Below, piece by piece: positions 1-35,015 of a DNA stretch of 35,015 nt. Each line of letters opens with the position of its first letter. The stretch's first letter is position 1. This DNA comes from an uncultured Methanosarcinales archaeon (lineage in GTDB: Archaea > Nanobdellota > Nanobdellia > Woesearchaeales > ARS49): contig CAYJTR010000001.1 of assembly GCA_964373285.1 (NCBI GenBank), positions 1 to 35,015 of the forward strand, read 5' to 3'. The translations under genes and the position numbers were made by a program. Below the pieces are notes generated by a model, which saw nothing but the letters and a program-made list of their open reading frames with translations, was not told the origin of the DNA and made no database searches.

Positions 1-71
1 AGCGTCAACAATAGTAAAAGTAATAATGGTGCGAACTGGTGGCAAAAGTCGAGCATTGCGAGACTCAGGAC

Positions 72-117
72 AGAGCCTGGGCCGCGGCTCTTGCGGGAAT
101 GTTTTCTGCTCTTTTTG
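72..117 (+). terminator. Possible terminator of an upstream + strand gene: 6-bp hairpin AGAGCC/GGCTCT followed by T-runs
   Basis: agagcc-tgggccgc-ggctct at 72-91, then gtttt (101-105) and cttttt (111-116). The upstream gene itself is not visible in the window. Confidence 0.3.
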
Positions 118-131
118 AATTTTTCCCCTCG

Positions 132-144
132 AAACATTTATATA
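132..144 (+). promoter_or_regulatory. BRE/TATA-like box aaacatttatata
   Basis: Matches the AAACATTTATA motif that recurs upstream of other genes here (1966, 18781, 32731). Lies 55 nt upstream of the ATG at 199. Confidence 0.45.
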
Positions 145-198
145 GTTCTCAACGCCCTGTTTCTTGCCATCGTTCATGTTTTTCGATAGAGGTGATTT

Positions 199-378
199 AT
201 GGCTGAAGATGTTCTTTTAAGGTTGGTCTTGTACCTGCTTGTTGGCACAATGGCTGCCATTGTGTATTCTTTGAGGGTTCTTGTGCTTTTGGATAGGAAG
301 ATTGAGCGTATTGAGGTTCATATTGAGAGGATGACTGGTTCTCTCGTCAGGAAAGGGGCGCGTTCCAGAAGGCGTTGA
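199..378 (+). CDS. Small hypothetical membrane protein (59 aa)
   Basis: ATG at 199 preceded by GAGGTGA (189-195). Product MAEDVLLRLVLYLLVGTMAAIVYSLRVLVLLDRK... has one hydrophobic helix and a basic tail. It falls just below the ORF-track length cutoff. Confidence 0.35.
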   Translation: MAEDVLLRLVLYLLVGTMAAIVYSLRVLVLLDRKIERIEVHIERMTGSLVRKGARSRRR

Positions 379-386
379 TTTTTATC

Positions 387-1289
387 ATGAAAACTATCAG
401 GAGTGTTTCAGCAAAGCTTTCAAATGTTCCTCTGCATTCTTGCAGGGAGTCCTTGGTTTTGCACTCTTTGAGGTCTTTTTCTAATTTTGTTAGGAGGGAT
501 TCCTCTAAAACTCTTGCTGTTCTTTCTGAAAATTGTCATAGTGCTGCTGATCTTTTGGTCGCGTCAAGGCATGGCGATCCTTTGTTTAGGAATCTTTACA
601 AAATTTTGTTGTCTGATGTTTTTTCTCAGCAGAGTGTTTCTAGGGCCAAAATAAAACTTTTGCTTAACATTCGTGAGGCAGAAGGTGAATTTCTTCGCTC
701 TATCGCAAAAATTTCTTCTCTTGTTGAGGGAAAAATTCCCCGGGGCGGCAATGTTTTCATAACTGGCGGGGACTTTATTATTAATAATTCTTTGATTTCT
801 TCTTTTAATAAAAAGAGGAAGTTTGGCGTTTTAATTTGCGAGGAGCGTTCAACTCTTTCTGGCAGGAAGTCTGCTGAAGTTTTGTCGAAGGCAGGATTGC
901 CCCTTAATTTTTATCCTGATAATTCTTTGTCTTACGCATTGTTTTCTGCCGATATTGTTTTTCTTAGAACTTTTGCTTTGACTGGTGATTTTGTTGTTGG
1001 TTCTCCCGGAGCTTTGCTTGTTGCAGAGATTTGTAATTCTAGGGGCATTCCTGTTTATGCTGTTGCTCCTGTTCTTTCTTATGATGATAATTCTTCGCTT
1101 GTTAAGTCTCTTCATAATGGTGTTCTCCCCGGTTTTTTTCCCGACCGTTTTAAGAATGTTGTTGTTCGATCTCCTGCTTTTGATTTCGTTCCAGGAGGAT
1201 TATTGACTGGCGTTATTACTGATATAGGAATTTTTCCTTTTGATGCTTTGTTTGATGAAGTTTCTAGGAGTGTTCCCGATATTTTTTAG
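387..1289 (+). CDS. eIF-2B alpha/beta/delta family protein (aIF-2B / ribose-1,5-bisphosphate isomerase-like)
   Basis: The C-terminal pattern ADIVFLRTFALTGDFVVGSPGALLVAEICNSRGIPVYAVAPVLSYDD matches the GAD...NKIGT...PvYV.AP..fD signature. A central segment GVLICEERSTLSGRKSAEVLSKAGLPLNFYPD matches V.ESRP..G...A..L...GI. The ATG at 387 is preferred over the TTG at 375. Confidence 0.65.
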   Translation: MKTIRSVSAKLSNVPLHSCRESLVLHSLRSFSNFVRRDSSKTLAVLSENCHSAADLLVASRHGDPLFRNLYKILLSDVFSQQSVSRAKIKLLLNIREAEGEFLRSIAKISSLVEGKIPRGGNVFITGGDFIINNSLISSFNKKRKFGVLICEERSTLSGRKSAEVLSKAGLPLNFYPDNSLSYALFSADIVFLRTFALTGDFVVGSPGALLVAEICNSRGIPVYAVAPVLSYDDNSSLVKSLHNGVLPGFFPDRFKNVVVRSPAFDFVPGGLLTGVITDIGIFPFDALFDEVSRSVPDIF

Positions 1290-1795
1290 GTGATTTGCAT
1301 TTCTTTTTTTAGTGTTAATATTTCTTTTTCAATAATTTCTATCTTTTTCTTGTTGTCATCTTCAGATAATATGTTTCCGCATTCTGGGCATTTGTATTCG
1401 AACTCTGTTGCTCTTTCGAAATCTAGTCTTATGCAGTTGTTTGAGCAGTTGTAATAGAATCCTTGGCGTTCTCTCATGAGTCTTTCTTCTAATTTTTGTA
1501 TTTTTTTCTTTTTCAGGTCGTGAAACAGGAATTTTGCTCTTTCCGGGTTGAACGTCCAGTAGTAAACGTACCACCCTTTGACCTTGTCTTTTTTTCTGTT
1601 GTATGTTACTAAGTTCGCGTTGTAAAGCTTATATAACAGGTTTCTTGTTGGATTTATCTCCATTTTTATGTTTTTGGCTATTAGAAATTCTGAAATATTG
1701 CTTTTTTTCTGTATGCTTCTGACTAGTTTTAGTACTTCTTCGCCGGCAACTTCCACTGCCACGTCTTCAACGATTTTTCTTGATATTTTCACCAT
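1286..1795 (-). CDS. tfe: Transcription factor E (TFE alpha, TFIIE-alpha homolog)
   Basis: N-terminal winged helix followed by GWYVYYWTFNPE, then a zinc ribbon (CSNNC...CPECG). Start taken at the ATG (MVKISRK) rather than the GTG at 1816. Its stop overlaps the stop of the convergent 387-1289 gene by 4 nt. Confidence 0.85.
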   Translation of the reverse strand: MVKISRKIVEDVAVEVAGEEVLKLVRSIQKKSNISEFLIAKNIKMEINPTRNLLYKLYNANLVTYNRKKDKVKGWYVYYWTFNPERAKFLFHDLKKKKIQKLEERLMRERQGFYYNCSNNCIRLDFERATEFEYKCPECGNILSEDDNKKKIEIIEKEILTLKKEMQIT

Positions 1796-1965
1796 ATAAA
1801 ACCGCGTCAAAACCACAACTGAATAAGTATAACTATCCGATAGTATTATTTATAAATCTTTCTTTTTTCGGTACTTTTTGATTTCTTGAACGGACAGGCA
1901 ACTAATATGCAACCATCACGACGACTAAATTTTCCTGCATTAATACACCATTATTTAATAGTAAT

Positions 1966-1977
1966 AAACATTTATAA
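1966..1977 (+). promoter_or_regulatory. BRE/TATA-like box aaacatttataa
   Basis: Lies 34 nt upstream of the ATG at 2011. GAGGTGG (2000-2006) could serve as a ribosome-binding site. Confidence 0.45.
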
Positions 1978-2010
1978 GCGCTCGAGAACCTCGCTTTGTG
2001 AGGTGGTTTG

Positions 2011-2505
2011 ATGAGCGGGTTGTTTAGTTTTTTCAGGAAAAAGTCTTCCGATGACTATTCTCTTCCTGAGCCTCCGGCTCCTCCTTCTGGTTCTCTTTCG
2101 TTAAAGAGTGATATTCCCAGCATTAGGGGTTCAGAAATTTCCAGTGTTGAGCCCAACGATTGGAATGTTGAGCCCCCCAAACCTCCGGTTTCTGAAGAAA
2201 GTTCTGCAACACCCATTTTCGCGGCAGAAAACACCTCAAACTCTCCCACCAGCCCTCCCGTCAGCAAGAAAAGTTCCCAAAAGCCCGTGGGCCCCATTTT
2301 CATAAGTATTAATGATTATCAAAGCATTATAGGTAATGTTAACAGCATGCAGTCTTTGCTTAACGAGGGGCACCAAAAGATAGACAATTTGGAGCATTTG
2401 AAAACCTCCGCTCAAAAAGAGCTTGATTCTTGGAAATCTAATCTTGAGGATATCGAGAGAAAATTAAATTATGCTGATAGTATTATCGCGAAGGCGGGAG
2501 TTTGA
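2011..2505 (+). CDS. Hypothetical protein: Pro/Ser-rich disordered N-terminus plus C-terminal coiled-coil module
   Basis: The C-terminal 70 aa (PIFISINDYQSIIGNV...LDSWKSNLEDIERKL) are paralogous to the next ORF. Codons are T/G-ending, as in other + strand genes. Confidence 0.6.
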   Translation: MSGLFSFFRKKSSDDYSLPEPPAPPSGSLSLKSDIPSIRGSEISSVEPNDWNVEPPKPPVSEESSATPIFAAENTSNSPTSPPVSKKSSQKPVGPIFISINDYQSIIGNVNSMQSLLNEGHQKIDNLEHLKTSAQKELDSWKSNLEDIERKLNYADSIIAKAGV

Positions 2506-2507
2506 TT

Positions 2508-2732
2508 ATGGAATCCAAACCTGTATTCATAAAGATTAACGAGTACAATGACATTCTTGACATTATAGCTTTGACTAAGAGCAAGCTTCAGCAGGCCCGG
2601 ACTCTTCATGACAGGCTTTCAAAACTTCATTCTCAGGAGGAGGAACACTTAAAACAATGGCAGGAAGAATTAGAAAACGTAGGGCGCAATCTGGAAGAGT
2701 TGGACAACACTCTGGCGAGGCCTCAGCAGTAG
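2508..2732 (+). CDS. Hypothetical small coiled-coil protein (74 aa), paralog of the C-terminus of 2011-2505
   Basis: PVFIKINEYNDILDII...LKQWQEELENVGRNL aligns with the preceding protein. GGGAG lies 7 nt upstream of the ATG at 2508. Confidence 0.6.
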   Translation: MESKPVFIKINEYNDILDIIALTKSKLQQARTLHDRLSKLHSQEEEHLKQWQEELENVGRNLEELDNTLARPQQ

Positions 2733-2746
2733 AGAGTCCTCTCTAC

Positions 2747-3067
2747 ATGTTTTTGGAGTCTCCTGTTGATTCCCGTAAGAAATTGTTGGAGACTGTGAAA
2801 ATAGTTATAAAAGCTTTGCAGGGGCGTCAGGACATTTTAAAGATTCTTGATGAGAAAGAAAGGGTGGGGTTTCAATTCTTGAAATCTTTGCAGGATTTAT
2901 CCGTTCTCACGAAAAAATTAGGTTTGAAACTTCCCAAGCAGGAATGGAAGCGCGCCGTGATCTCCAAGGTTGAACACTTGCCTTCTGATGCCCCTCCGGG
3001 TCAAAAACTTGACGTTTTAGAAAGGGAAATCGGCAAGATTGAGGAGAGAATAAGAGTTCTTGGTTAG
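2747..3067 (+). CDS. Hypothetical small helical/coiled-coil protein (106 aa)
   Basis: ATG at 2747, 15 nt after the stop of the previous gene. The product looks helical and heptad-like. The track start at 2657 would overlap the previous gene by 76 nt. Confidence 0.5.
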   Translation: MFLESPVDSRKKLLETVKIVIKALQGRQDILKILDEKERVGFQFLKSLQDLSVLTKKLGLKLPKQEWKRAVISKVEHLPSDAPPGQKLDVLEREIGKIEERIRVLG

Positions 3068-3145
3068 TTGATACCGCCGGGTTGAGTGTCTTCGGAACAG
3101 GCAACATTTCTTTTTTCATTGCCCTCCCGCCCCTTCAGCAATTCT

Positions 3146-4489
3146 TTACTCAACACTTACTTTTTGTCCTTCTGTTATTGGGTGCAGTGTTTTGCCTTTT
3201 TCGTAACCCATTTTTTCTGCTAGTTGTACGAATGCCTCTATTACTTTCTTGTTGCTGTGGGCTGGTATAACGTTTTTTGGTTTTAACAGGTGTATCATGT
3301 CTCTCATGTCTTCTCTTCCTCCGTGTCCTGATACGTGTATCCCTTTGAATATTCTTAATCCTTTTGCTCTTAATTTTTCTTCTAATTTTTCTCTTAGTGC
3401 AATGTTTACTTCTGTTGGTATTACGTTGCATGAGAATATTATGTGGTCTTCGTGGTGGAATGGGAATGGCAGCACCCCGTCGGCCATTTTTGATAGTACT
3501 GCTCTTGGTTCTCCTTGATGTCCTGTTGTTATCAGCAAATATTTATGTATTCCTTTATTTATTATTTTGCTTAATTCTTTTTTTGCCTGGCTTGAATATC
3601 TTACTATATATACGTCTTTGCCGAAGTGTGTTACTCCCGCGTTTTCTGCTGCTTGAATATATTTAGCCAGTGATCTTCCTATAAGCACCGGTTTTCTCCC
3701 TAATTTTTGTGCAAACTCTATTGCGCTTTTTATTCTTGCTATGTGCGATGAGAACGTTGTTACAAGAACTGCTCTGTTCTTATTGTCAACGTTTAGTAAT
3801 ACATCTCTCAGCATTTCTCTGGCTATCATTTCTGAAGCGGTTTTTCTTTCATCGTCTGCGTATAAAGTGTCTATTATAGCTACTTTCACTCCTTTTTCTG
3901 ATAATTTTTTCATCCCTTCATAATTTGGTTTTTGTCCTAGTATTGGATTGTTGTCGAGCTTGAAGTCGTTGGTGTACGCTATTATTCCTTCGGGTGTGTG
4001 CAGTGCCGCTATTACGCTTTGGGGTGTTGAGTGTGTTATTCCTAAAAATTCCAGCGTTACGTTTTCAGAAATTTTCATACTGCTGTTCGGGTGCATTGTT
4101 CTTATCTTATTGGGTATTTTTCTTTTCTGGTCTCTTAATATTTCTTTTATTACTTCTCCGGTGAAAGGCGTGCAGTATAATGGCACGTTGTATCTTTCCG
4201 CTATGTATGGTATCGCTCCTATGTGGTCTAGGTGTGCATGAGTTGTTATTATCGCTTTAACTTTTTTTCTTAGAGATTCTATCATTGTGTCGTCAGGTAT
4301 TGCCTTGGCTTTTCTTAGCTCTTCTGTTGTATGCTTTTTCAGCTCTGTCTCTTCTTCTTCGGTATATTTTATGTAGTTGGGCATGTGTAATCCCATATCG
4401 AAAAGGAACACTTCTTCACCAACTTTTACCGCAGTCATATTTCTTCCTACTTCTCCGTAGCCTCCCACTGCGCATATTTCTATTGACAT
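3146..4489 (-). CDS. rnj: Archaeal RNase J (beta-CASP metallo-beta-lactamase ribonuclease)
   Basis: N-terminus MSIEICAVGGYGEVGRNMTAVKVGEEVFLFDMG, motif HAHLDHIGAIPY (HxHxDH), about 447 aa with no KH domains. Confidence 0.85.
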   Translation of the reverse strand: MSIEICAVGGYGEVGRNMTAVKVGEEVFLFDMGLHMPNYIKYTEEEETELKKHTTEELRKAKAIPDDTMIESLRKKVKAIITTHAHLDHIGAIPYIAERYNVPLYCTPFTGEVIKEILRDQKRKIPNKIRTMHPNSSMKISENVTLEFLGITHSTPQSVIAALHTPEGIIAYTNDFKLDNNPILGQKPNYEGMKKLSEKGVKVAIIDTLYADDERKTASEMIAREMLRDVLLNVDNKNRAVLVTTFSSHIARIKSAIEFAQKLGRKPVLIGRSLAKYIQAAENAGVTHFGKDVYIVRYSSQAKKELSKIINKGIHKYLLITTGHQGEPRAVLSKMADGVLPFPFHHEDHIIFSCNVIPTEVNIALREKLEEKLRAKGLRIFKGIHVSGHGGREDMRDMIHLLKPKNVIPAHSNKKVIEAFVQLAEKMGYEKGKTLHPITEGQKVSVE

Positions 4490-5662: not shown

Positions 5663-6400
5663 ATGAGGTTGTCTCTTTCGGATGTTAGTTATTTGCGTGA
5701 TAGTATTGGTGTTATTTCTGAGCTTGTTTCCGAGGGCAGGTTTTCTATTACTAAGAATGGTGTTGAGCTTGTTGCTATGGATCCTGCTAATGTTGCAATG
5801 ATTATTTTTAAGCTTCTTCCTTCTTGTTTTTCTGAGTATAATGTTGATGACCCTCAGGTTGTTGGTTTGAACCTTTCTAATTTGAAGCAGGTTTTGAGGC
5901 GTGCGGGTCTTGGTGATTCTTTGTCTTTGGAAATTTTTGATGGTAAGATTCATATTACTTTGGATGGCGCTTCTAAGAGAACTTTTAGTCTTCCCATTAT
6001 TGCTGTTGATGAGAGGGAGCAGAAGATTCCTTCACTTTCTTTTCCTTCGAGCATCACTCTTCCTAGTAGTGTTTTGACTAATGCTATTGAGGATGCGGGT
6101 ATTGTTGCTGAGAGTGTTTTGTTTACTGTCGAACCCGGTTTTTTTACTTTGAGTGCTGAGGGCGATCTTAGCAAGGCGAGTATTCAGACTAGGGAGGGTG
6201 ATGGCACCGTTATTCTTTCTGATAGTAAGACTAGGGCTAAGTATGCTATCGAGTATTTGAAAAAGATGGTTCAGGGTTCTAAAATTTCTGATTCTGTTAC
6301 TATTCGTATTGATACTAATTACCCTTTGAAGCTCGAGTATAGGTCTATTGATAAGGTTTCTTTGGAATTTATTCTTGCTCCAAGGGTTGATGATGTATGA
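5663..6400 (+). CDS. pcn: DNA polymerase sliding clamp (PCNA)
   Basis: 245 aa. N-terminus LRDSIGVISELVSEGRFSITKNGVELVAMDPANVAMIIFKL and C-terminus YPLKLEYRSIDKVSLEFILAPRV are typical archaeal PCNA. Confidence 0.9.
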   Translation: MRLSLSDVSYLRDSIGVISELVSEGRFSITKNGVELVAMDPANVAMIIFKLLPSCFSEYNVDDPQVVGLNLSNLKQVLRRAGLGDSLSLEIFDGKIHITLDGASKRTFSLPIIAVDEREQKIPSLSFPSSITLPSSVLTNAIEDAGIVAESVLFTVEPGFFTLSAEGDLSKASIQTREGDGTVILSDSKTRAKYAIEYLKKMVQGSKISDSVTIRIDTNYPLKLEYRSIDKVSLEFILAPRVDDV

Positions 6401-7098
6401 ACTCTTTGTTTGTTCCCGTGATTGGCTATCATGATTCTGTAAGGGTTGATTCTTTGTTGAGGGAGAAATTTAAGCTTTCTGAATCTCAGCTTGTTGTTTA
6501 CGCCGGTCTTGCTGTTTCCCAGCTTGCTAAAAAAATGCTTGATGGTAAAAAGACTGTTTTGATTCTTGCCGGTCCCGGTAATAATGGCGCCGATGCTTTG
6601 TGCGCCGGGTGGAATTTGCATACTGCTGGTTGTTCAGTTTCTGTTTTTCTCGCCTGTGATTTTCCTTCAGTTGTTGGTTTGGAGTATAAAAATTTGTTAG
6701 AAACTGCAGGTATTGTTTTTCACTCTTTTACTGGTTTGGAGCCCGCTTTGGATTCTTGTGATATCGTTATTGATGGCCTTGTTGGTTATAATTTGCAGGG
6801 CAATCCTAGGGGTATTATTCATTCCGTTATAGAAATTGTTAATAAGAAGGATCGTTTTTTGTTGAGTATTGATGTTCCTACTGGTTATGAGCTTAGGACT
6901 GGCTTGTTGAGAACTCCTCACATTTCTTCCAGTGCTACTTTGTGTCTTGGTCTTGTTAAGGAGGGTTTGGATGAGAGTTTTGCTGGTGTTTTGTACGCCG
7001 GGTATATTGGTATTCCTCCTGCTTTGTATGGAGAGATTGGTGTAGATTTTGATTTTGAAAAGTTTGATGGTGTTGTTCAGACAGTTCCTAAAAATTAG
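6397..7098 (+). CDS. nnrE: NAD(P)H-hydrate epimerase (YjeF N-terminal domain)
   Basis: LILAGPGNNGADALCAGWNLHTAG matches the GPGNNGGDG motif, and DIVIDGLVGYNLQGNPRG matches D.ivDal.G.G. Its ATG overlaps the pcn stop (ATGA). Confidence 0.75.
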   Translation: MNSLFVPVIGYHDSVRVDSLLREKFKLSESQLVVYAGLAVSQLAKKMLDGKKTVLILAGPGNNGADALCAGWNLHTAGCSVSVFLACDFPSVVGLEYKNLLETAGIVFHSFTGLEPALDSCDIVIDGLVGYNLQGNPRGIIHSVIEIVNKKDRFLLSIDVPTGYELRTGLLRTPHISSSATLCLGLVKEGLDESFAGVLYAGYIGIPPALYGEIGVDFDFEKFDGVVQTVPKN

Positions 7099-7129: not shown

Positions 7130-8005
7130 TCACGTTATTACTGCATCTACGCATATTCTGTAAGTTCTTGGCTTTACCTCTCCGCACTTTATTATTCTTA
7201 GAATTTTGCACTTTCTTTTTTCTTTTCTGCATTCTTCAATAATTTTCTTCGCGGATTCTTCGAATTGTTCTGGTGTTGCGAAATCATAAAAGTGCAGCAC
7301 TCCTCCAGTTTTTACTGCTTTTAATGCGGTGTTCAAAAAGTTTTCTCCCCCTTTCGGCAGGGGCATTGCTACTCTGTCAAACTGCCCTATTTTTGGCACT
7401 ATGTTTTTTACGTCGCCTTTTATGAAATCTATTTTTTCTCCTATTTTCTTGTTTAATTTTTTGTTTTCTATCGCGTACTTGTGGCATTCCGGATTTTTTT
7501 CAACTCCTACTATTTTTTCTGGCTTTGAATTTTTCGCTATTACTAGAGGGAATGGTCCCACTCCTGAAAACATTATTAAAACTTTTTCTCCTTCTCTTAC
7601 TTGTTTTGCCAGTCTTAACCTTTCGGTTCCGTATCTTGGTGAGTAGTAGCACTTGTCTATGTTTAGTTTTATTATTGTTCCTGATTCTTTTTGTATTGTT
7701 TCTTTAGTTCTTTTTCCTCCTATTATTTTTGTTTTTCTTGTTCTGAACTCTCCTTTGTGTATTCCTGCTCTTTTTGCCACAGTTTTCACTTGTTTGAATG
7801 TTTCTATTATTTTTCGCGCTATTTCTTTCTCTTTCCTCTCCAGCTCTTTTGGAACTTCTATTATTGCTATTTCTCCTATCACGTCGAAGCTCGCAGACAT
7901 TTTTTTCATTTCTCTTGTAGTTATTATTTTTCTGAGTATTTCGTGCAGCGGTCTCATGGGCGGTGTTATTCTGCGCTCTTTTTTTAAATGTGCCTGTCTT
8001 TTCAT
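7130..8005 (-). CDS. trm5: tRNA (guanine37-N1)-methyltransferase Trm5 family (Met-10+ like)
   Basis: FDVIGEIAIIEVPKEL, YYSPRYGTERLRLA and the SAM-binding VLIMFSGVGPFPLVIA. The start could instead be MRPLHEIL at 7957. Confidence 0.8.
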   Translation of the reverse strand: MKRQAHLKKERRITPPMRPLHEILRKIITTREMKKMSASFDVIGEIAIIEVPKELERKEKEIARKIIETFKQVKTVAKRAGIHKGEFRTRKTKIIGGKRTKETIQKESGTIIKLNIDKCYYSPRYGTERLRLAKQVREGEKVLIMFSGVGPFPLVIAKNSKPEKIVGVEKNPECHKYAIENKKLNKKIGEKIDFIKGDVKNIVPKIGQFDRVAMPLPKGGENFLNTALKAVKTGGVLHFYDFATPEQFEESAKKIIEECRKEKRKCKILRIIKCGEVKPRTYRICVDAVIT

Positions 8006-9034: not shown

Positions 9035-9041
9035 GATTTCT

Positions 9042-10037: not shown

Positions 10038-10060
10038 AGTATTGGTTTTTGTGTTCAGAC

Positions 10061-10070
10061 TTATATATAT
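10061..10070 (-). promoter_or_regulatory. TATA box (ttatatatat) for the 9042-10037/fen/trm5 operon
   Basis: Lies 24-33 nt upstream of the ATG at 10037, consistent with a leaderless transcript. Confidence 0.5.
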
Positions 10071-25821: not shown

Positions 25822-26101
25822 CTATTATTTGCCTAGCTATTTCTTGGGCTTTCTCAATCATTTTTGTTCTTGAACATTTTGAGCATAATACTCCGCCGTA
25901 AGGTCTTTCTGGTCTTCTTTCAGTTTTGGACATTTTTTGTATTTGTGATGGGTATCCTCTGGCTGTTCCTTTGAGTGTTGTTCCGCAGTCCGCGCACTCT
26001 GCTTTGCCTGTTTTTCTTCTGCCGTAATGTATCGTTCTTCTGCCTCCCGGCAGTGTTGCCCTTTTCCTCTTGAATGTTCTGTTCTTGTATCTGCCCCTCA
26101 T
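25814..26101 (-). CDS. rpl34e: 50S ribosomal protein L34e
   Basis: MRGRYKNRTFKRKRATLPGGRRTIHY...CADCGTTLKG...RPYGGVLCSKC. The ATG at 26101 is preferred over the track start at 26215. It overlaps rpl14e by 8 nt. Confidence 0.85.
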   Translation of the reverse strand: MRGRYKNRTFKRKRATLPGGRRTIHYGRRKTGKAECADCGTTLKGTARGYPSQIQKMSKTERRPERPYGGVLCSKCSRTKMIEKAQEIARQIIGE

Positions 26102-26200: not shown

Positions 26201-26749
26201 ATGCATGATATTCAAGAGTTTAGGTATGATCTTAAAATTCCTAGGGAGCGTGTCGCCGTTATTATTGGTAAGGATGGTTCTACAAAGAAGTTGTTGGAAT
26301 CTTTGACTAAGACTAGGATTGGTGTTGATTCTGATTCTGGGGAGGTTGTTATTACTGGTTCTGATACTTTGCTTCTTTACCAGACTAGGGAGATTGTTCG
26401 GGCTATCGCTAGGGGTTTTAATCCTGATATTGCCAGACAGTTGATAAAGCAGGATTATAGTTTGGAAGTTTTGAATCTTCAGGATTATTCCAGAAATCCT
26501 AATGATTTGGAGAGGTTGAAGGGAAGAATTATTGGTCAGGATGGCAAGGCTCGCAGAACTATTGAGGAGCTTACCAAGACTAGTTTGTGCGTTTATGGCA
26601 AAACTATCAGTATTATAGGGTATGTCGAGGACATTAGTGTTGCCAGAAGGGCTGTTGAGTCATTGCTTGCCGGTAGCAGGCATGGAAACGTTTATAAAAA
26701 GATTGAGAGGCGCAACAGGATTATGAAAAGAGAGGCGCCTAAGTTATGA
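26201..26749 (+). CDS. KH-domain RNA-binding protein (archaeal Dim2/Pno1-like, two KH modules)
   Basis: [14 protein letters not shown] and [15 protein letters not shown] are GxxG KH loops. Confidence 0.8.
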
Positions 26750-28395
26750 GTACTGTTGCTGAACAATTGGCTCAGAAGCAGAGGGATATTAGCGTTGCAG
26801 AATTCTTTGAGAGGAATCGCCACCTTCTTGGTTTTGATAATAAAAGGAAGGCGTTGCTTACCGTTGTTAAAGAGGCCGTTGATAATTCTATTGATGCCTG
26901 CGAGGAGGCGAAAATTTTGCCTGATATTTCTGTCGAGATTGTTGATATGGGTAATGATCGTTTCAAAACTATTGTTGAGGATAATGGCCCGGGCATTGTG
27001 AAAAAAAATATTCCTAATGTTTTTGCTAAATTGTTGTATGGCTCCAAATTTCACAGGATGAGGCAGTCACGGGGCCAGCAGGGTATAGGTATTAGCGCCG
27101 CGGTTTTGTACGCTCAGCTTACTACTGGCCGTCCTGCAAGGATTACTTCTAAAACTGGCAAGGATGAGCCGGCTCATTATTATGAGCTTCATATTGATAC
27201 TCAGAAGAATACTCCTCAGATTGTTAAGGATGATATTGTTGAGTGGCCCGGCAAGGTTAGCGGCGTTAAGATAGAGCTCGATTTTGAGGCCATTTATCAG
27301 AAGGGTGATCAGAGTGTTGATGCCTATCTTCGCGAGACCGCTATTACTAATCCTCACGCATCCATAACTTATACTACTCCCAGGGCCGAACAATTTATTT
27401 TTCAGAGGGCGACCAACTCTCTGCCTCCCGAGGCCAGGGAGATTAAGCCCCACCCCTATGGTGTTGAGCACGGCATTATGCAGAAATTGTTGAGGAATAC
27501 TCAGTGTAGAACTATGCAGCAGTTTTTGACTACTGAATTTTCCAGGGTTAGTCCTGCTGTTGCCAAAGAAATTTTGGAAAAATCTTCGATTCCCAATAAT
27601 TTCAGGCCTTCAGAAATTACTCATCCTCAGGTTGAGAAAATGATGTCTGCTATTCGTGATACTAAAATCATGGCTCCTCCTACTGATTGCATTGTTCCTA
27701 TAGGTGCGGAATTGTTAGAGAAGGGTTTAAGGAAGGAGGTTAATGCTGAATTTTATACTTCTATCACTAGAGTTCCTGAAGTTTATAGGGGTATTCCTTT
27801 TGTTGTTGAGTGCGCTGTTGCTTTTGGCGGCGACCAGCCCAAGGAGGAATCTTCCCGATTGTTGAGGTACGCTAATAGGGTTCCTTTGTTGTACCAGCAG
27901 GGCAGTTGTGCTAGTTTTAAGGCTGTTACTCAGACTAATTGGAAGCAGTATGGTATTCCTCAGACTAAGGGTTCTTTGCCTCAGGCTCCTTTAACTATTG
28001 TTGTTCACCTCGCTTCTGTCTGGCCTCCTTTTACTTCTGAAGCCAAGGAGGCTGTTGCTCATTACCCCGAAATTATCAAGGAGATGAAGCTCGCCGTTCA
28101 GGAGGTTGCTCGAAGACTTGCTCAATACGTTAGGAGGAAGGAGCGTGTTGGCGCCGAAGGTAAGAAGAGGAGTTATATTGAGACTTACCTTCCTCATGTT
28201 GCTAACGCTTTGAAAAATTTGTTGGGCATTAGTCAAAAAGAGGAGCTTTTTGTTTCTTCGAAGCTTAAAGAGATTCTTGAGAAGAAGAGGGGCGTTTTGG
28301 AAAAGTTTGATGTTGATAATCCTGAGTATGATGAAGAATTGGCTAGTGTTGGTAAGGGCGTTAAGATTTCTGAGGGTGATACTTATGAAGACTGA
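26746..28395 (+). CDS. top6B: DNA topoisomerase VI subunit B
   Basis: [16 protein letters not shown], the Bergerat ATP-binding fold ([23 protein letters not shown]) and the transducer domain. Its ATG overlaps the KH stop (ATGA). Confidence 0.92.
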
Positions 28396-29482
28396 TAATG
28401 ATTTTTTGGTTATTAAGAAGATTCGTGGCGAGGCCGAGGAGATATTTAAGTCTATTAAGAGTGGCAGACTTCCGACTCTTACCACTCCTTTGCGTGCATT
28501 GTCCAATGTTACTTATGATGAGAAGCGCGGTTATTTCGAGCTTGCCGGCGGTAAAAAGTCTAGGACTTTGACTGCTAACACTATAAAAACTTTTGCTCAA
28601 ACTTTGAGAATGATGGAGCTTTCCAAACTTCTTGTTGAGACTGATGATATGGCTACCAAGAGGGATGCTTATTATCAAAGCAAGAATTGGGGCGAGGCAA
28701 GGTTTTCTGAACAGCCGGAAAGCGATGCAGTTATGGATGATATGGAGGCGCTCTTCGGGGTGAACAGGGAGCAGTTAGGTTTTTATCCTGATGAGCGTGG
28801 CGGCGATGTTGCTGGCGCGTTGACAGTTATTGATGAAGATCCTGAAACTGGCAAAGAGATAAGAATTGATTGTACTAAGTTTGGCAGTGGTTCTTATAGC
28901 GTTCCTTCGAGTGTTGAGCAGTTGAAGTTTGAGACTAAGGCAGAATTTATTTTGGCTATTGAGACTCAGGGTATGTATTCCAGGCTTGTAAAGCACGCTT
29001 ACTGGAAGAAGCAAAATTGCATTCTTGTCAGTATGGGAGGGGTTCCAACAAGGGCAACCCGCCGGTTTATTCGACGATTGGCGGATGACAAAAAGATTCC
29101 AGTGCTCGTTTTTGATGATGGAGATCCTTATGGGTGGCTGAACATTTATAGGACTTTAAAGGTTGGTTCCGGCAACGCTGCACATCTTAACAAATATTTT
29201 TGTGTTCCTCAGGCGCATTTTATAGGAATAACTGCCAGGGACATCACGGAGTACAAGCTTCCAACGCACCCATTGAAAGATATTGATATTAAGAGGGTTG
29301 AGGACGGGCTGAAGAACGACCCGTTCGTCAAGCATTACAAGGAGTGGCAGACTGCGCTTCACGATATTATTAAGTTGAAGAAGAGGGCTGAACAGCAGGC
29401 GCTTGCCGCTCATGGTTTGAATTATGTTATGAGTGATTACCTGCCTCAAAAATTGGAGAATCCTAAAAGCTGGCTGCCTTAA
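28385..29482 (+). CDS. top6A: DNA topoisomerase VI subunit A (Spo11 family)
   Basis: Winged helix with the catalytic Tyr region (KRDAYYQS) and a Toprim domain ([19 protein letters not shown]). The ATG at 28385 overlaps top6B by 11 nt. The track start at 28250 is rejected. Confidence 0.92.
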
Positions 29483-29541: not shown

Positions 29542-30276
29542 TCAGCTGATGATTTCTTTGTATAATTCTTCTTCTGAAGTTTTCACTCCTATTTTTTTGA
29601 AATAGTTCGCGATATTTTTGCAGTCTCTTCTGAGCCACTCTTCCGCGTTTGGATCTTTGAATGTTGTGGAGTGCGACAAATCTATAAGCACCGGGTTCTC
29701 GTCGTCGTTTAATATGTTGAATTGTGATAGGTCTGCGTGAACAAGCCCTGCATTATGCATTTTTTTCATTTCCCGCAATACTTTTTTGTAGAACTCTTCG
29801 GGATTTTTCGGTTTTTGAACGCTTAATCTTGGCGCTGGCGCTTCTCTTCCTATTAGTGACATTGCTAAAACGTTGTTTGAGAACGCTTTAGGGTGGGGCA
29901 CTCTTACTTCTCCTCTGACCGCCGTAAGCAAATTTTTGTATTCTCTTTTGCACCACTCAAATATTATTTTTCTTCTTTGGTGTCTTAACTCTAAAAATCT
30001 AGGGTCTGATCTTATGTATGAGTACATCTTGTTGAAGTCTGCTGTTTGCAACCTGTATATTTTTACCGCTATTTTTTCTTTTCCTTTTCTCGCCGTGAAA
30101 ACGTTTGATTCTTTTCCTATGCTTAACGGGCTTTCCAAACCGTCAATAACTCCCTTGGTTATTAGCGAGTGTATTGTTCTTTCTGTGAAAATGTCGAACA
30201 CGTCGTTGAGTGTTTTCCATATTTCTTTTTGCGGCTTTCTCAAATTTCCACCTCTCTTTTTGACAGGTAGCGCCAC
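29542..30276 (-). CDS. RIO-type serine/threonine protein kinase (Rio1-like, no N-terminal wHTH)
   Basis: SIGKESNVFTA, VKIYR and LVHADLSQFNIL, followed by IDLSHS. Start is either the GTG at 30276 or the TTG at 30243. Confidence 0.85.
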   Translation of the reverse strand: MALPVKKRGGNLRKPQKEIWKTLNDVFDIFTERTIHSLITKGVIDGLESPLSIGKESNVFTARKGKEKIAVKIYRLQTADFNKMYSYIRSDPRFLELRHQRRKIIFEWCKREYKNLLTAVRGEVRVPHPKAFSNNVLAMSLIGREAPAPRLSVQKPKNPEEFYKKVLREMKKMHNAGLVHADLSQFNILNDDENPVLIDLSHSTTFKDPNAEEWLRRDCKNIANYFKKIGVKTSEEELYKEIIS

Positions 30277-30929
30277 TCCCCTCTCTTTAAATCTTTTAAT
30301 GTTATACTTCCTATTCTTACTCGTAATAGCATTAATACCTTGTTGTTCAGCTCCTCAAATATTCTTTTGACTATGTGCTTTCTTCCTTCGTGAATACTTA
30401 TCTCCCACACGTAAGGGTTTCTTTTTTTTGCTCTTATCTCAACAGGCCTCCCGTCTATGAAAATTCTTTGAGGTATTTTATCAATTCTATTCTTTAGTTT
30501 TACCACGTACGTTTTCGTAGTTTCGTATTTTGGATGCGCTATTTTTGATGCCCACACCCCGTCATTTGTTAATAATAATAATCCCTCAGCGTCCAAGTCT
30601 AATCTTCCCGCTATGAATATTCTTTCATCCACTTCCACATAATCAGTGGCGCAGGGAATTCCTCTTTCTCTGACTATTGATGATATCACCCCTTTGGGCT
30701 TGTAAAATGCTATGTACACAAATTTTTCCGGAATTATTTTTTCTCCGTCAAGAATAACAACATCTCTTGAAGATATTTTCTGCCCCAGAACTGCCGTTCT
30801 CCCGTTTATCTGCACTCTTCCTTCTCTTATCATGTCCTCGCATTTTCTTCTTGATGCAACTCCGCACAGCGCGAGGTAGTGGTTTATTCTTATTGTTTCT
30901 AATTTTGATTCTCTTTGGTTTGTTTTCAT
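30240..30929 (-). CDS. Pseudouridine synthase of the RsuA/RluB/RluF family with N-terminal S4 domain
   Basis: S4 domain RINHYLALCGVASRRKCEDMIREGRVQING and catalytic motif GRLDLDAEGLLLLTNDG. Confidence 0.85.
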   Translation of the reverse strand: MKTNQRESKLETIRINHYLALCGVASRRKCEDMIREGRVQINGRTAVLGQKISSRDVVILDGEKIIPEKFVYIAFYKPKGVISSIVRERGIPCATDYVEVDERIFIAGRLDLDAEGLLLLTNDGVWASKIAHPKYETTKTYVVKLKNRIDKIPQRIFIDGRPVEIRAKKRNPYVWEISIHEGRKHIVKRIFEELNNKVLMLLRVRIGSITLKDLKRGEWRYLSKREVEI

Positions 30930-31627: not shown

Positions 31628-32107
31628 ATGCATGCGATAGATATTGTTTTGAAAAAAACTCCTGCTGTTGTTTCAATGGCTGTGAGGATGGGTTTTGTTG
31701 TTGAGGAGGCCTCGAAAATCGGGGTTTTTCAGGCAGGGGATGATGTCCGCGCCCTTGTGGAAAAGAAAGGTGTTAGCGGCATTTACGATTTTGAATACGT
31801 TGAGCCCCGCGACTCCTTGCATTACAGAAGGTCGGGGCTTAATAATATTATTTGCGCTATTATGAGCAAAAAAAATATTTTTTGGGTTGTCAACATCAGG
31901 GCGATTATAGAAACTTCCGGCAGGAGCAGGGCGATTCTTCTCGGGCGCATCAGGCAGAATATTGCCTTGTGCAGGAAGTACAATGTTCGCGTTCGCGCAG
32001 GCAGTTTTGCTGAATCTCCCGAGCATTTGCGCTCGCCGCACGATGTTGAAGCACTGCTTAAAGTCCTCGGCATGAGAGACGTTGATGTGAAGAAGATTTG
32101 GGGGTGA
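31628..32107 (+). CDS. rnp3: RNase P protein component 3 (Rpp30/Rnp3-like), short form
   Basis: The C-terminal region RAILLGRIRQNIALCRKYNVRVRAGSFAESPEHLRSPHDVEALLKVLGM matches the Rpp30 pattern (CRKYgV....sS.A.....lRsPrD...l...lG). It is only 159 aa. Confidence 0.65.
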   Translation: MHAIDIVLKKTPAVVSMAVRMGFVVEEASKIGVFQAGDDVRALVEKKGVSGIYDFEYVEPRDSLHYRRSGLNNIICAIMSKKNIFWVVNIRAIIETSGRSRAILLGRIRQNIALCRKYNVRVRAGSFAESPEHLRSPHDVEALLKVLGMRDVDVKKIWG

Positions 32108-32119
32108 AAATCCTGTTAG

Positions 32120-32677
32120 TCATTGTGATCGTATAATACATTCCTCTTTTTTTTCGGCGCTCACAATATTGTTGCAGAGCTTTGGCGCTAAATAAATCAT
32201 TGCCAGCCTTTTCCAAGCTTTTTCTGCGCATTGCTGTTCATACAACTCAGTATTTCCTGCAAGTATTTCGCATATTTCTTCCGTTGATGTCTCGGCGTCG
32301 GCACATTCCTCTGCTTTTTGTAGAACTTCTGCTCTGCATACATTGTTTGTTCCACACAGCTTTTCATCTTTTGTTATTTTTGCTCTGCACTCCATTGACT
32401 CTTTCTCATCTGCGTATTCATCACAGAATGATTCATTTTTTTGCAGCACTGCCCTGCATAGTTCTGGCTCATCACTTTTTTCGCAGAGCCGGAGATTTCC
32501 TGTTTGTACCGCCTGTATGTATGCAACTATTCCTTTTGTCTGAGAGAGACATTCTTGGTTCTTGCTTTGGAATTCTTCCTTTACACTGTCAGATTCTGTA
32601 CTCCAGAATATGAGAAGTCCCGTAATTCCCGCTACCAGCACGATAAGCACTCCTATTGTTTTGATAGTTCTGTCCAT
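32120..32677 (-). CDS. Membrane-anchored Cys-rich repeat protein
   Basis: The start is taken at MDRTIKTIGVLIVLVAGITGLLIFW (TM anchor). The ectodomain has 13 Cys with three repeats of the type CRA-x4-5-K-x2-4-C (ELCRAVLQKNESFC, MECRAKITKDEKLC, NVCRAEVLQKAEEC). Confidence 0.55.
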   Translation of the reverse strand: MDRTIKTIGVLIVLVAGITGLLIFWSTESDSVKEEFQSKNQECLSQTKGIVAYIQAVQTGNLRLCEKSDEPELCRAVLQKNESFCDEYADEKESMECRAKITKDEKLCGTNNVCRAEVLQKAEECADAETSTEEICEILAGNTELYEQQCAEKAWKRLAMIYLAPKLCNNIVSAEKKEECIIRSQ

Positions 32678-32730
32678 AATACATCTTCCTGCCATCCACC
32701 AATAACCCTTATTTTTAAACCTTTCGAGAG

Positions 32731-32745
32731 AAACATTTAAAAAGG
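32731..32745 (+). promoter_or_regulatory. BRE/TATA-like box aaacatttaaaaagg
   Basis: It lies upstream of the long ORF that starts at 32808. AAGGGG lies 7 nt before the ATG. A - strand box (tttaaaaata, 32712-32721) may serve the divergent gene. Confidence 0.35.
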
Positions 32746-32807
32746 AATTGCTCATAAAACACGGCATTCGCTCATCGAACATTCTTGAGCGCAAAAAGGG
32801 GTTTTGT

Positions 32808-35015
32808 ATGCGATTACTATCGTTAGGTTTGTTGATTTTCTTTTTATTGCTGTTTAGTTCCCAAAGCGGTGTAGTTCTTGCCTCTTCTCATGAACCTACA
32901 AAATTCGAATTGTATCTCGACTCTCTTAGGGTGTATGATGGAATTTCTGCTGGTCCTGATAATTGTGATGACGGAGAATCTTCAACCAGTAAGGAATTCT
33001 CCTTTCCCTTGCGAGAGGTTCTGCAAGTGTCCTTTGATGGTTTCACTTGGACAAAAAACACTGGTTGGGGGAAAGACTGCACGGCTAGGTATACTAGACT
33101 TTTTTTCACGTTGTATGGTAATCAAAATTTTGTGAATAATTATGTTCCCATTGTTGGTGATGGTAGAATTGATGGCGCAGTTGATATCGGGAAAGTTTTT
33201 TTTCCGCCTAATAACTTGTTTTTCAACAAGCTTAGAGTGGCAGTACACGTTGGTGATAGGCGTCAAGGAACGCTAAATTCTGTATCTATCAAGACGCGTA
33301 ATTCCGTCAAAAATTTCCATCCCACCACTTCAAAATCCGGGACTCTCCAAATCTCTGTCTCTGATGGAGCGCTATACCTCGGCACCGTCAAAGATTTGGA
33401 AGAAGGAGCTCGCTGGATTAACTCTTCTAATCCTAATGTGATGGTCTGGTTTTCTTCTAAAGCTCCTAAGGATTATCCTTCTGTTGACTGGTTTTACGGT
33501 TTTGAACCTTCAGATGTTAATATTACTGATAGGGGTTCTGATTTTAGGGCTGGCGGTAAGCTTGTTGATGATAAAGGTAATGTCTTGACCGATGATAATG
33601 TTTTCGTTTATGCCTGTCTTGATAGTGATTTGAACAGGGTTTGCGACTTTTTGGATGATAGAGATTTTTGGAAGAATTCCTGCGAGAATGCACAGCTCGC
33701 TCCGGGAAGTGACAATCCAAAGACCGGTTTTGTTTTTAATGATTCCGTGACTTTTGGTCTTGGTTGTTGTGGCGATGATGGAGTTATTGATTGTAACACT
33801 AATGTTGTTGCGACGAACGGCAAGAGGTTGTTTTGCGATAGAATTGTTCAACCTAATGGTGATAAAAAGTGGGAGTGGGTTGAATCTGTTAATGGCACCG
33901 TTTTTAATAGCTCTTGTTTTTTTGGCAATCAGATACTTCTTAATGGTTCTGATAGGTTGATGTGTGGCGTTCCTGACCCCAGCAAGGAGTTGAATTCAAG
34001 TTTTGATATTGCTGTTTTTGGTATGAAGTCTCAGAGTGTTTCTACCGGTCCCGTTAACTTCCAAATTTCTTTTTCTGGACCTTCCACTGAAACTAAAACT
34101 TATACTTTTTCTCCTCCTAAACCTTGTACTTCTTTGATTCTTAATGTTAAGAATACTGGATCTGCGCAGGTCTCTCCATTGTTTAATACTGTTTCTGTTG
34201 GTTTTGTTGGTGGTTCTTCTGGTTCTCAAACTTTGCACGCGGTTATGCGTCCCTCTACTGCTGGTGATCCTTCTTCTGCTGAATATTTTGTTGATTCTTC
34301 GGGTATTCCTGTTGGCAGTTTTATAAATTCTGTTTCTTTAACTCTTGACTCTAGTGCTTCTTGGACTGGTGTTGAGTGTTTTAACAATAGGGCTGTTCCT
34401 GTGAGGAGGGAGGTTAAATCTGTATCTTTGGAGCCCGGAAAAGTTCATAATGATTTATTACCAATTTCTTCCATCACTATTCCCGGCGCGGAGAGTTATG
34501 TTTTGTTTCCTTTGTCGAAGAATGTTTTGTTGTCAACAAATCCTATAACTAAAAATCTTGATGGCAGTGTTGATTATGTTCCCGGCAATATTGTTTCTTC
34601 CTCGCAAATTTCTGGTGGCAAGACCGTGCCTGTTTATCTTTATGTTCCTTCATCTGCAGAAGCTAAAGCAATTAAGGATAAGGAGCTTTCCAGAATCACT
34701 CCTTTTTCTCTAAAAATTACTGTTCCGGAATTAGGTGATGTGCTACTTGCTGAGTATTCTGGATCTGCAAGGGCTATTGATGGTGTTCTTTCTAAAGATA
34801 TCAATACACAGATAGGGCACAGGATTACTTATTCTTTAACCTCTCCATTGCTCACTGCTTCTCAAGATTCTTCTTCAAAAATTTCTAAACTCGAGTTTGA
34901 GGGTAAAGGCACTTCATTTCAGCATTCTTCTGGGGGTAGCATTCCTCCGATTGTTGCAGAACTTTCTGATATTACTGGACCTTTGAATGGTATTCCTTTG
35001 ACTGTTACTGGTTCT
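32808..35015 (+). CDS. Large secreted protein, 5' partial (736 codons, open to the window edge)
   Basis: Translated by hand with no in-frame stop from the ATG at 32808 to 35015. The signal peptide is MRLLSLGLLIFFLLLFSSQSGVVLASS. There is a Cys-rich central region (GLGCCGDDGVIDCNTN...), many N-x-S/T sequons and an S/T/V-rich beta-like remainder. It is absent from the ORF track, presumably because it has no stop. Confidence 0.75.
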   Translation, partial: MRLLSLGLLIFFLLLFSSQSGVVLASSHEPTKFELYLDSLRVYDGISAGPDNCDDGESSTSKEFSFPLREVLQVSFDGFTWTKNTGWGKDCTARYTRLFFTLYGNQNFVNNYVPIVGDGRIDGAVDIGKVFFPPNNLFFNKLRVAVHVGDRRQGTLNSVSIKTRNSVKNFHPTTSKSGTLQISVSDGALYLGTVKDLEEGARWINSSNPNVMVWFSSKAPKDYPSVDWFYGFEPSDVNITDRGSDFRAGGKLVDDKGNVLTDDNVFVYACLDSDLNRVCDFLDDRDFWKNSCENAQLAPGSDNPKTGFVFNDSVTFGLGCCGDDGVIDCNTNVVATNGKRLFCDRIVQPNGDKKWEWVESVNGTVFNSSCFFGNQILLNGSDRLMCGVPDPSKELNSSFDIAVFGMKSQSVSTGPVNFQISFSGPSTETKTYTFSPPKPCTSLILNVKNTGSAQVSPLFNTVSVGFVGGSSGSQTLHAVMRPSTAGDPSSAEYFVDSSGIPVGSFINSVSLTLDSSASWTGVECFNNRAVPVRREVKSVSLEPGKVHNDLLPISSITIPGAESYVLFPLSKNVLLSTNPITKNLDGSVDYVPGNIVSSSQISGGKTVPVYLYVPSSAEAKAIKDKELSRITPFSLKITVPELGDVLLAEYSGSARAIDGVLSKDINTQIGHRITYSLTSPLLTASQDSSSKISKLEFEGKGTSFQHSSGGSIPPIVAELSDITGPLNGIPLTVTGS

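Follow-up and report, generated by a model that had tools for sequence, protein, structure and literature searches.

A strong nucleotide asymmetry fixed to the DNA strand splits codon usage in a 35-kb stretch of Woesearchaeota DNA

What decides which synonymous codon a gene uses, the gene itself or the DNA strand that carries it? The question is raised by a stretch of metagenomic DNA of 35,015 nucleotides (hereafter the window; contig CAYJTR010000001.1 of assembly GCA_964373285.1), for which a preliminary description had claimed that codon usage depends on strand, whatever the orientation of the genes. We observed that the asymmetry is fixed to the DNA strand and is set by the strand rather than by the gene. 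Over a domain of constant polarity that takes up the whole window (1..35015), the + strand is rich in T and poor in A at the synonymous sites of all genes outside a few cassettes of nucleotidyltransferase (NTase)/HEPN type, and in intergenic DNA. The total composition carries the same mark (T 37.7%, A 22.2%, G 21.6% and C 18.5%, or 13186, 7777, 7557 and 6495 nucleotides; G+C 40.1%), with an AT skew of -0.258 and a GC skew of +0.076; in sliding 2-kb windows the AT skew was negative in 32 of 34, and both exceptions lay at 19-22 kb. Judged by homology, the window is chromosomal and comes from a Woesearchaeota (DPANN) archaeon: the nearest named homologues of its topoisomerase VI B subunit (Top6B) are nearly all labelled Woesearchaeota or Nanoarchaeota, with a top identity of 94%, and Pfam families were matched by 26 of the 40 reading frames scanned, including the housekeeping proteins PCNA, FEN, PheRS, Topo VI and L34e.

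Across all genes, the fractions of A and of T at third codon positions (A3 and T3) differed by strand (Mann-Whitney p = 1.4e-6 each). Per-gene means were T 0.45, G 0.24 and A 0.17 for + strand genes, and A 0.52 and T 0.12 for - strand genes. Every synonymous pair singled out in the preliminary description, those of Gly, Val, Ile, Arg, Glu, Lys and Leu, split as it had said. In + and - genes, respectively, the frequencies were.44/.04 for GGT and.13/.71 for GGA,.79/.21 for GTT and.04/.47 for GTA,.78/.13 for ATT and.11/.83 for ATA, and.56/.12 for AGG and.18/.81 for AGA; among other G-ending codons they were.62/.18 for GAG and.57/.17 for AAG. PCNA, in which only about ten A-ending codons had been counted, has an A3 of 0.04. 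The tRNA-Leu(CAA) said to decode UUG was located by Rfam on the + strand at 4696-4781, and the share of TTG among Leu codons is 46% for + genes, against 9% for - genes. The first principal component (PC1) of relative synonymous codon usage took up 71% of the variance and separated the strands. Three cassette genes were exceptions, and two of these fell on the wrong side.

The + strand had the same composition whichever way its genes pointed. With cassette genes left out, pooled fourfold-degenerate sites read on the + strand were T.63, C.19, A.09 and G.10 in + genes (n=2563) and T.55, C.25, A.10 and G.09 in - genes (n=1630), which means that the strand and not the gene sets the composition. The strand-linked component of the T/A contrast was 0.68 and the orientation-linked component about 0.02-0.06; a transcription- or translation-driven T/A component was thus not seen in the window. 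The fourfold (T-A)/(T+A) of the + strand ranged from +0.41 to +0.91 in all 32 non-cassette genes with enough sites and did not vary with position (Spearman -0.08, p = 0.66), so that neither a gradient nor a switch of polarity occurs within the 35 kb, the latter as originally reported. Intergenic DNA had an AT skew of -0.29, or -0.22 without two doubtful segments, of the same sign as the genes and weaker than at fourfold sites. The even division of genes between strands was also borne out: orientation is near balance, with 21-22 genes on the + strand and 15-16 on the - strand, the + strand holding 58% of codons.

These observations bear on whether selection on codons or messenger RNA (translational selection, purine loading or nucleotide cost), or mutation coupled to transcription, could account for the pattern. 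Either would act on the sense strand and give the same codons in both orientations; the preferences in the window are mirror images, the orientation-linked component is close to nothing, and intergenic DNA shares the sign. Nor does the bias track gene class or expression. The gene for ribosomal protein L34e, presumably highly expressed, is composed like its - strand neighbours, and Top6B flips between strand types among relatives, in which it takes either extreme. Two loci elsewhere lend the idea some substance. In one (L020), a ribosomal-protein/RpoD operon at 9459-11983 (S9, L13, L18e, Rpb3-like and S11) deviates from the local strand skew, which suggests expression-linked codon selection in that Woesearchaeota; L34e in the window makes no such departure. 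The other (L083; ENA ERZ28564302 scaffold_56290) is a contig of 5 kb, and its Top6B shares 86% identity with that of the window; here fourfold A exceeds T in both gene orientations, an orientation-linked preference with no strand-linked asymmetry. Should this contig be representative, a very short evolutionary distance would be enough for the asymmetry to arise or disappear. Firmicutes whose asymmetry is associated with PolC resemble the window in that their strands contrast purines with pyrimidines and not keto with amino bases. In those bacteria the asymmetry goes with a strong bias in gene orientation and has been attributed to selection (PMC3174206); in the window, by contrast, orientation is nearly balanced, and pyrimidines prevail on the + strand, the richer in genes, at silent sites of both orientations. 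We therefore regard selection or transcription as a very improbable source of the asymmetry.

The consequences extend to the proteins, in part as the preliminary description had proposed. Products of + genes are enriched in S, D, V, F and L and those of - genes in T, K, I, E and M, which upholds the proposed split of S, V, L and F against K, E, I and T; G and N, which had been included in it, showed no significant enrichment by strand among the window's products. The suggestion that the skew accounts for many shadow open reading frames (ORFs) in the + frames did not survive counting, as stop trinucleotides numbered 46.4 and 47.0 per 1000 on the two strands and antisense open stretches 19.7 per 10 kb on the - strand and 23.1 on the + strand. 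The skew colours the composition of such frames without favouring the + strand.

Could the pattern have been produced by sequencing or assembly, through strand-specific conversion or a chimeric contig, or could the window be a foreign or mobile segment? The DNA comes from a metagenome, and a perfect tandem duplication of 408 nt within it may have arisen as a loop in the assembly. Run ERR3478686 nevertheless yielded two independent Logan contigs (L001 and L138) that cover 8.4 kb and 4.7 kb of the window, with identities of 99.8% and 98.7%, and a separate metagenome-assembled genome (MAG) from another study, GCA_016203445.1 (contig JACQMS010000011.1; hereafter the sister), shows the same pattern in syntenic orthologues. 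Core housekeeping functions are among the Pfam matches to 26 of 40 frames, and C is undepleted on the + strand, contrary to what chemical C->T conversion would leave. An artefact or foreign segment is scarcely credible as an explanation.

The sister is alike enough to be aligned gene by gene and distant enough to date the asymmetry. Nucleotide identity with the window is 75-94% over aligned parts and ~82-87% in long blocks, and protein identity is 84-97% for conserved genes (94% for Top6B). The sister has the same polarity, somewhat stronger (fourfold T.67/.62, A.12), at a fourfold divergence of 0.60 substitutions per site, and this persistence indicates an asymmetry older than the split of the two lineages. 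Further loci came from the sister (L082 and L139), from GCA_964359925.1 (L084 and L141) and from GCA_053531055.1 (L142).

The only genes that break the rule are NTase/HEPN-like cassette genes, whose codon usage lies between the strand groups or on the wrong side. A pair on the + strand at 19962-20965, a 135-aa ORF and a nucleotidyltransferase, uses A-ending codons (fourfold A.41-.42, T.18-.20; negative PC1). It is missing between Pelota and TrmB in the sister (L082) and was therefore recently acquired or moved. A second nucleotidyltransferase, on the - strand at 30937-31527, is intermediate (fourfold A.32, T.30). At this site, between pseudouridine synthase and RNase P p30, the sister has a different NTase-HEPN cassette on the opposite, + strand (L082 14229-15330), and the two nucleotidyltransferases share 37% amino acid identity. 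The exceptions are recently moved or acquired genes that have not yet equilibrated to the composition of their strand, which continuing mutational pressure predicts and a preference intrinsic to genes does not. As regards the cassettes themselves, the variable one near Pelota spans 19962-21283 and, relative to the sister, is inserted between Pelota and TrmB in the window only; at the pseudouridine synthase/RNase P p30 site the sister carries an additional AAA_14/DUF4143 ATPase.

The chemistry of the asymmetry is more particular than the claimed loading of the + strand with T and G. At twofold sites of the + strand, T/(T+C) was.79-.82 and G/(G+A) was.61-.74. At fourfold sites the pyrimidine fraction was.80-.82 and G/(G+A).47-.52, purines being depleted overall. 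The T part of the claim therefore stands; an excess of G exists only at purine twofold sites (AAG, GAG, CAG, AGG and TTG) and at first codon positions, and at fourfold sites C exceeds G. A keto-rich pattern (G>C and T>A on one strand) accordingly holds for total composition and twofold sites and not for fourfold sites. The common denominator of the three components is that A is lost and T is gained on the + strand. In GCA_964359925.1 both transition components are present and the purine-to-pyrimidine component is much weaker; this and the different components in GCA_053531055.1 show that the chemistry of the asymmetry varies between related lineages. Fourfold sites with C in the window and T in the sister numbered 228 and the reverse 104, and G+C is not stationary. 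Fifteen single-nucleotide differences separate the window from L001, 13 of them transitions (7 at pyrimidines and 6 at purines), too few for a spectrum.

In strength, the asymmetry of this stretch exceeds that of Borrelia, the textbook bacterium. The one published figure found for a typical strand gap is a mean leading/lagging difference in fourfold G (G4f) of 2.9 percentage points, in bacteria (PMC3269017); the gap in fourfold T (T4f) between + and - genes of the window is about 53 points. In the cross-skew metric of Joesch-Cohen et al. (PMC6042203), the Borreliaceae, at 0.051-0.073, are the most extreme outliers among 7738 genomes and far above other bacteria. With 37 genes and the + strand taken as reference, the window reaches 0.094-0.100 and is thus stronger than Borrelia; its components are leadGC.195, leadTA.137, lagGC -.104 and lagTA.411, against.258,.022,.015 and.211 for B. 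burgdorferi (PMC6042203). In Borrelia/Borreliella burgdorferi, as in Ehrlichia, Chlamydia and Lawsonia, strand is the main axis of codon usage, as it is here. Borrelia is further like the window in having no detectable expression-linked bias, in the way protein composition moves with strand, and in its small genome and host-dependent lifestyle. It differs in that the window is archaeal, with PolD, and dominated by A/T, with C>G at the fourfold sites of its T-rich strand; moreover, the sign change at the origin is well documented in Borrelia, whereas the window lineage is known from one side of orc1 only.

Vertebrate mitochondrial DNA has a heavy/light-strand asymmetry whose silent-site magnitude is comparable to that of the window. 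The likeness extends to twofold sites, where T is raised at pyrimidine sites and G at purine sites of the same strand, and to the proteins, which are affected in both. Such a joint rise of T and G is the mark left when C and A are deaminated on the strand that is more often single-stranded. The differences are that the window lacks a gradient and is part of a cellular chromosome with Orc1, MCM-type and PolD genes nearby; we also know of no mitochondrial shift from purine to pyrimidine at fourfold sites as strong as the one seen here. Fourfold asymmetries are reported from archaea too: T4f is raised on the strand denser in genes, and the asymmetry in G4f is often 'inversed' (PMC3269017). The window follows both tendencies, T4f being higher on its coding-richer strand and G4f 'inversed'. 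Cumulative GC skew of the bacterial type is reported in only 18 of 224 RefSeq archaea and in one DPANN genome (10.1101/808410), which fits the statement in the preliminary description that a split of this kind is unusual for archaea.

Taken together, we consider it likely that this is a strand-fixed mutational asymmetry linked to replication in general. Under this explanation the two strands would be under very different mutational pressure, fixed to the strand and not to the gene. Pyrimidine sites on the + strand would be pushed to T (C->T) and purine sites to G (A->G), and purines would be swapped for pyrimidines where transversions are silent; codon usage would follow passively, and amino acid usage too, to a measurable degree. 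The + strand would be consistently more exposed or differently copied, as the leading strand of a fork that moves from left to right. Damage on the more single-stranded strand, namely deamination of C and A and the loss or oxidation of purines, could supply the chemistry. The skewed domain would begin at an Orc1/Cdc6-PolD cluster with an origin recognition box (ORB)-like element, ~8.5 kb to the left of the window.

That cluster comes into view through longer contigs. L138 adds 4.9 kb to the left of the window, with eIF-2 beta, DUF424 and the PolD large subunit (DP2; fourfold T.74, A.05). The polarity of all three is that of the window and is thus constant over 39.9 kb in this lineage. The sister contig runs on to the PolD small subunit and Orc1/Cdc6 and ends 138 nt upstream of orc1. 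Its polarity does not change in the 38 kb that were read of the 45.7-kb span starting at orc1; every gene there, orc1 included, is T-rich on the strand that corresponds to the + strand of the window (+0.43 to +0.98;.88 for fourfold T in PCNA), with no visible gradient of skew outward from orc1. The 138-nt stub (L139 1-138) contains an ORB-like element, TCCATAAGAAATCATGGGGTC, which is conserved in GCA_964359925.1, where the 672-nt spacer between TrmB and orc1 (L141 6488-7159) has two inverted ORB-like elements flanking an AT-rich stretch. These elements fit the pattern TCCA[CT]A.GAA.T.A.GGGGT. The conserved order is an AT-rich spacer with ORB-like elements (L142 6995-7371), Orc1/Cdc6, PolD DP1 and DP2, preceded in L141 and L142 by a divergent TrmB; less than 140 nt remains upstream of orc1 at the end of the sister MAG contig, and the same is true of a Logan contig.

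In Pyrococcus, orc1/cdc6 is followed by the genes for the two PolD subunits and preceded by ORB elements and an AT-rich spacer. The neighbourhood described here has the same arrangement of orc1/cdc6, PolD subunit genes, upstream ORB-like elements and AT-rich spacer. The region upstream of orc1 is likely to be the oriC of these Woesearchaeota (general origin criteria are given in PMC3528665), and it is plausible that the window, in which no ORB-like motif was found, begins about 8.5 kb to the right of the origin. Firing of the putative origin would make the + strand the leading one at the fork that moves rightward. The T-rich + strand is also the one that carries more coding sequence, and both assignments agree with the usual archaeal pattern (PMC3269017). 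Woesearchaeota have at least two types of Orc1/Cdc6, ~28% identical to each other: one of about 403 aa (L139 139-1350), with a Cdc6 winged-helix domain, lies directly upstream of the PolD genes, and one of about 360 aa (L081 4377-5459) lacks PolD linkage. The MCM gene beside the putative origin of GCA_964359925.1 (L141 1-1433) has an annotated product of 1556 aa in which intein-splicing and LAGLIDADG domains recur, and so has at least two inteins; that of L142 is 673 aa without intein domains.

Several points weigh against the link to replication. Skew is expected to change sign at a replication origin, and in Pyrococcus it inverts at oriC. In L141 and L142, the sole relatives with both flanks and hence the two in which this could be tested, we saw no sign change across the orc1 spacer, in contrast to Pyrococcus. 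In L141, one and the same strand is rich in T and G through 7 kb on the left side of the spacer and 16 kb on its right, and the polarity of the skew relative to orc1 is opposite in L141 and L142. The second Orc1 paralogue did no better. A metagenome scan with the Orc1 from L081 as query found 51 loci, of which 28 were analysed; among the 24 with both flanks there was no systematic switch, and the right-minus-left average was about zero. No sign change of the skew was seen anywhere, so that the link to replication is probable rather than demonstrated. In addition, the excess of C over G at fourfold sites reverses the classical leading strand, in which G and T abound, so that composition alone assigns the leading strand ambiguously. 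The mutation spectrum, finally, is drawn from composition and from an unpolarised comparison, not from polarised mutations: the substitution analysis was a reversible fit without a usable outgroup and largely restates composition. The readings left are that the Orc1/ORB locus may not be an active origin, that replication may be asymmetric from it, or that the locus may move often. The only candidate for a polarity switch among 80 Top6B loci, at ~9.4 kb of L020, coincides with the start of the ribosomal-protein/RpoD operon mentioned above and was taken as expression-linked.

The same absence of a switch invites another form of the replication explanation, with forks of a different geometry, in which one polarity holds over the whole chromosome or very long domains and replication is effectively unidirectional or strongly asymmetric. 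The window would then be an archaeal counterpart of the Microgenomates lineage UBA1400 within the candidate phyla radiation (CPR), comprising Ch65, Collierbacteria and Beckwithbacteria (Kadnikov et al. 2020, PMC7143001), organisms that are ultra-small and probably symbiotic, like that of the window. The likeness lies in a very large disparity, genes about evenly divided between strands and no visible sign change; on one strand of Ch65, C is 29.8% and G 15.0%, and the cumulative skew is monotonic (PMC7143001). The G/C disparity of L142, at a raw GC skew of about -0.3, is close in size to that of Ch65. Ch65 differs in that its asymmetry is of G/C only, with A about equal to T, whereas that of the window is mainly of A/T, and in that Ch65 is a closed chromosome, whereas 35-46 kb are readable in the window lineage. 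The unchanged polarity over the 39.9 kb of the window lineage and the 38 kb read in the sister fits such a geometry, as does the passage of strong skew through the ORB-containing orc1 spacer in L141 and L142. On the other side, no more than 46 kb are available per skewed genome, and if genomes measure ~1 Mb, chance alone should cause both switch points to be missed. The region next to orc1 may also not be an active origin, the opposite orc1-relative polarity of L142 and L141 would need an extra inversion under a fixed unidirectional origin, and the DPANN genome Forterrea is reported to have a normal bidirectional skew pattern (10.1101/808410). We consider chromosome-wide polarity unlikely, though less so than the explanations from selection or artefact.

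A related proposal, that some Woesearchaeota replicate their chromosome or long domains one way only, or from an origin unrelated to the Orc1-PolD/ORB locus, strikes us as similarly doubtful, and it would have clear consequences. One strand would be 'leading' almost genome-wide and, with reduced repair, could reach disparities on the scale of mitochondria. The chemistry would vary among relatives, from T+C-rich here to T+G-rich in GCA_964359925.1 and G/C-dominated in GCA_053531055.1, and these archaea would parallel the unexplained whole-chromosome disparity of CPR Microgenomates.

Returning to the strand-fixed mutational asymmetry that we favour, its sign and strength change quickly among relatives. 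Across 86 Woesearchaeota loci, the fourfold (T-A)/(T+A) of Top6B ranged from -0.94 to +0.91, the window being the most T-rich, and by our count a strand-linked index above 0.3 was found in about a dozen of ~70 evaluable Top6B loci. In GCA_964359925.1, whose Top6B is 79% identical, the gene lies on the A-rich strand, and the other strand has the classical pairing of T with G. L142 (JAIYRQ010000005.1 50550-74089) has mainly a G/C disparity, with fourfold C of.43-.49 and G of.04-.07 in long genes, and its raw GC skew, -0.13 to -0.46, keeps its sign over 23.5 kb that include the putative origin.

Orthologues of opposite polarity suggest that the bias reaches positions that change amino acids. At nonsynonymous differences between the window and L084, the window had T at 62 and A at 91 and L084 had T at 31 and A at 116 (Fisher p = 3e-4), with V, R and S gained and T, Q, A and E lost in the window. 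The effect is only suggestive, because the control gene RIO, which is on the A-rich strand in both genomes, showed the same trend without significance (odds ratio 1.9, p = 0.18); part of the signal may be lineage composition. Over all 86 Top6B orthologues, the effect was not significant (Spearman about 0.1) because skew is weak in most loci.

The individual genes of the window line up with these averages. Those with Pfam matches and T-ending codons on the + strand run from an IF-2B family gene (375..1289; fourfold T.70, A.12), through PCNA and YjeF_N (5663..7098), the most extreme of all (PCNA T.82, A.04; YjeF_N T.74), RNase Z, Hjc and ScpB (10668..13856, a stretch that includes ORF 12068-12652; T.60-.66, positive PC1), Pelota, then TrmB, PheS and PheT (21280..25464; T.61-.64, A.06-.09), to a KH-domain protein and topoisomerase VI B and A (26201..29482; Top6B (T-A)/(T+A) +0.91), and RNase P p30. 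Those with A-ending codons on the - strand are TFE (1286-1816; fourfold A.45), a beta-CASP RNase (3146-4489; A.59), Trm5/Tyw2, FEN and a tRNA-splicing endonuclease, together with a hypothetical 331-aa gene (7130..10617; A.53-.66, T.06-.10), a CARDB protein with three large hypothetical genes (13864..18772; A.51-.60, on the same strand in the sister), L34e with a hypothetical 106-aa gene (25492..26101; L34e A.50), and, more weakly, RIO kinase and pseudouridine synthase (29542..30929; A.43 and.40). By position, two further + strand ORFs lie between TFE and the beta-CASP RNase (within 1286..4489). The 5' part of a giant ORF with T-ending codons (32808..35015, +; PC1 +3.81) runs out of the window, and three - strand ORFs within it are shadows.

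Some features of the window stand apart from the asymmetry. The giant ORF has a sister homologue of 1976 aa (L082 18066-21650), is 61% identical between window and sister, against 84-97% for most conserved neighbours, lacks a Pfam match, and may encode a fast-evolving surface protein; the adjoining - strand gene at 32120-32794 is 31-33% identical to its sister counterpart. The ScpB homologue is 412 aa long, with the family match limited to residues 10-155 and a long C-terminal part without assignment. Upstream of it, ORF 12068-12652 (+, 194 aa) has strand-typical, coding-like codons and no family match, and its position would suit an ScpA-like partner. The four large - strand genes at 13864-18772, whose sole family signal is one weak CARDB match, may encode cell-surface proteins; two are conserved in the sister, in which the end of a third is seen at the edge of the locus. 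Rfam and Pfam searches of the unassigned regions and the giant ORF returned nothing except the tRNA-Leu. The tandem duplication at 4765-5577 comprises 2.0 copies of a 408-nt unit at a 100% match, begins in the final 17 nt of the tRNA-Leu(CAA) and occupies most of the gene-free gap before PCNA, which is 1173 nt in the window and 634 nt in the sister. Each unit contains T-rich sub-repeats of 18-21 nt. This could be a real duplication, an integration remnant at the tRNA or the assembly loop considered above.

That codon usage can be split by a strand-specific mutational bias is not new, and small fourfold asymmetries are likewise known in archaea. In the literature searched, we found no paper that deals with the codon usage of Woesearchaeota or DPANN or with strand asymmetry in them, no archaeon reported with strand-dominated codon usage, no A/T-dominated, pyrimidine-type asymmetry of such size, and no report of rapid turnover of its sign, strength or chemistry among close Woesearchaeota or of skew that continues across a well-formed Orc1/ORB locus. 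CPR Microgenomates (PMC7143001) were the only precedent found for the chromosome-wide version with one polarity.

Strand-split codon usage has been a textbook oddity of a few host-dependent bacteria; here it appears, at greater strength, in a DPANN archaeon. Fork direction, or another process fixed to the strand, would have to be extremely stable in these uncultured organisms. To our knowledge, nobody has measured chromosome replication in DPANN, and silent-site composition would then offer a cheap handle on it. That in two relatives the skew keeps its sign from one side of a well-formed Orc1/ORB locus to the other poses a concrete puzzle about origins. Gene callers, codon-based binning and detectors of horizontal gene transfer that use a single codon table would mis-score half of the genes, and the reach of the bias into amino acids would be a source of compositional artefact in a DPANN phylogeny that is already contentious. 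Relatives at 79-94% protein identity have asymmetries that are wholly different in sign, strength and chemistry, which points to rapidly changing mutation regimes, and skewed and unskewed sister lineages permit a direct comparison of their repair and replication gene content.

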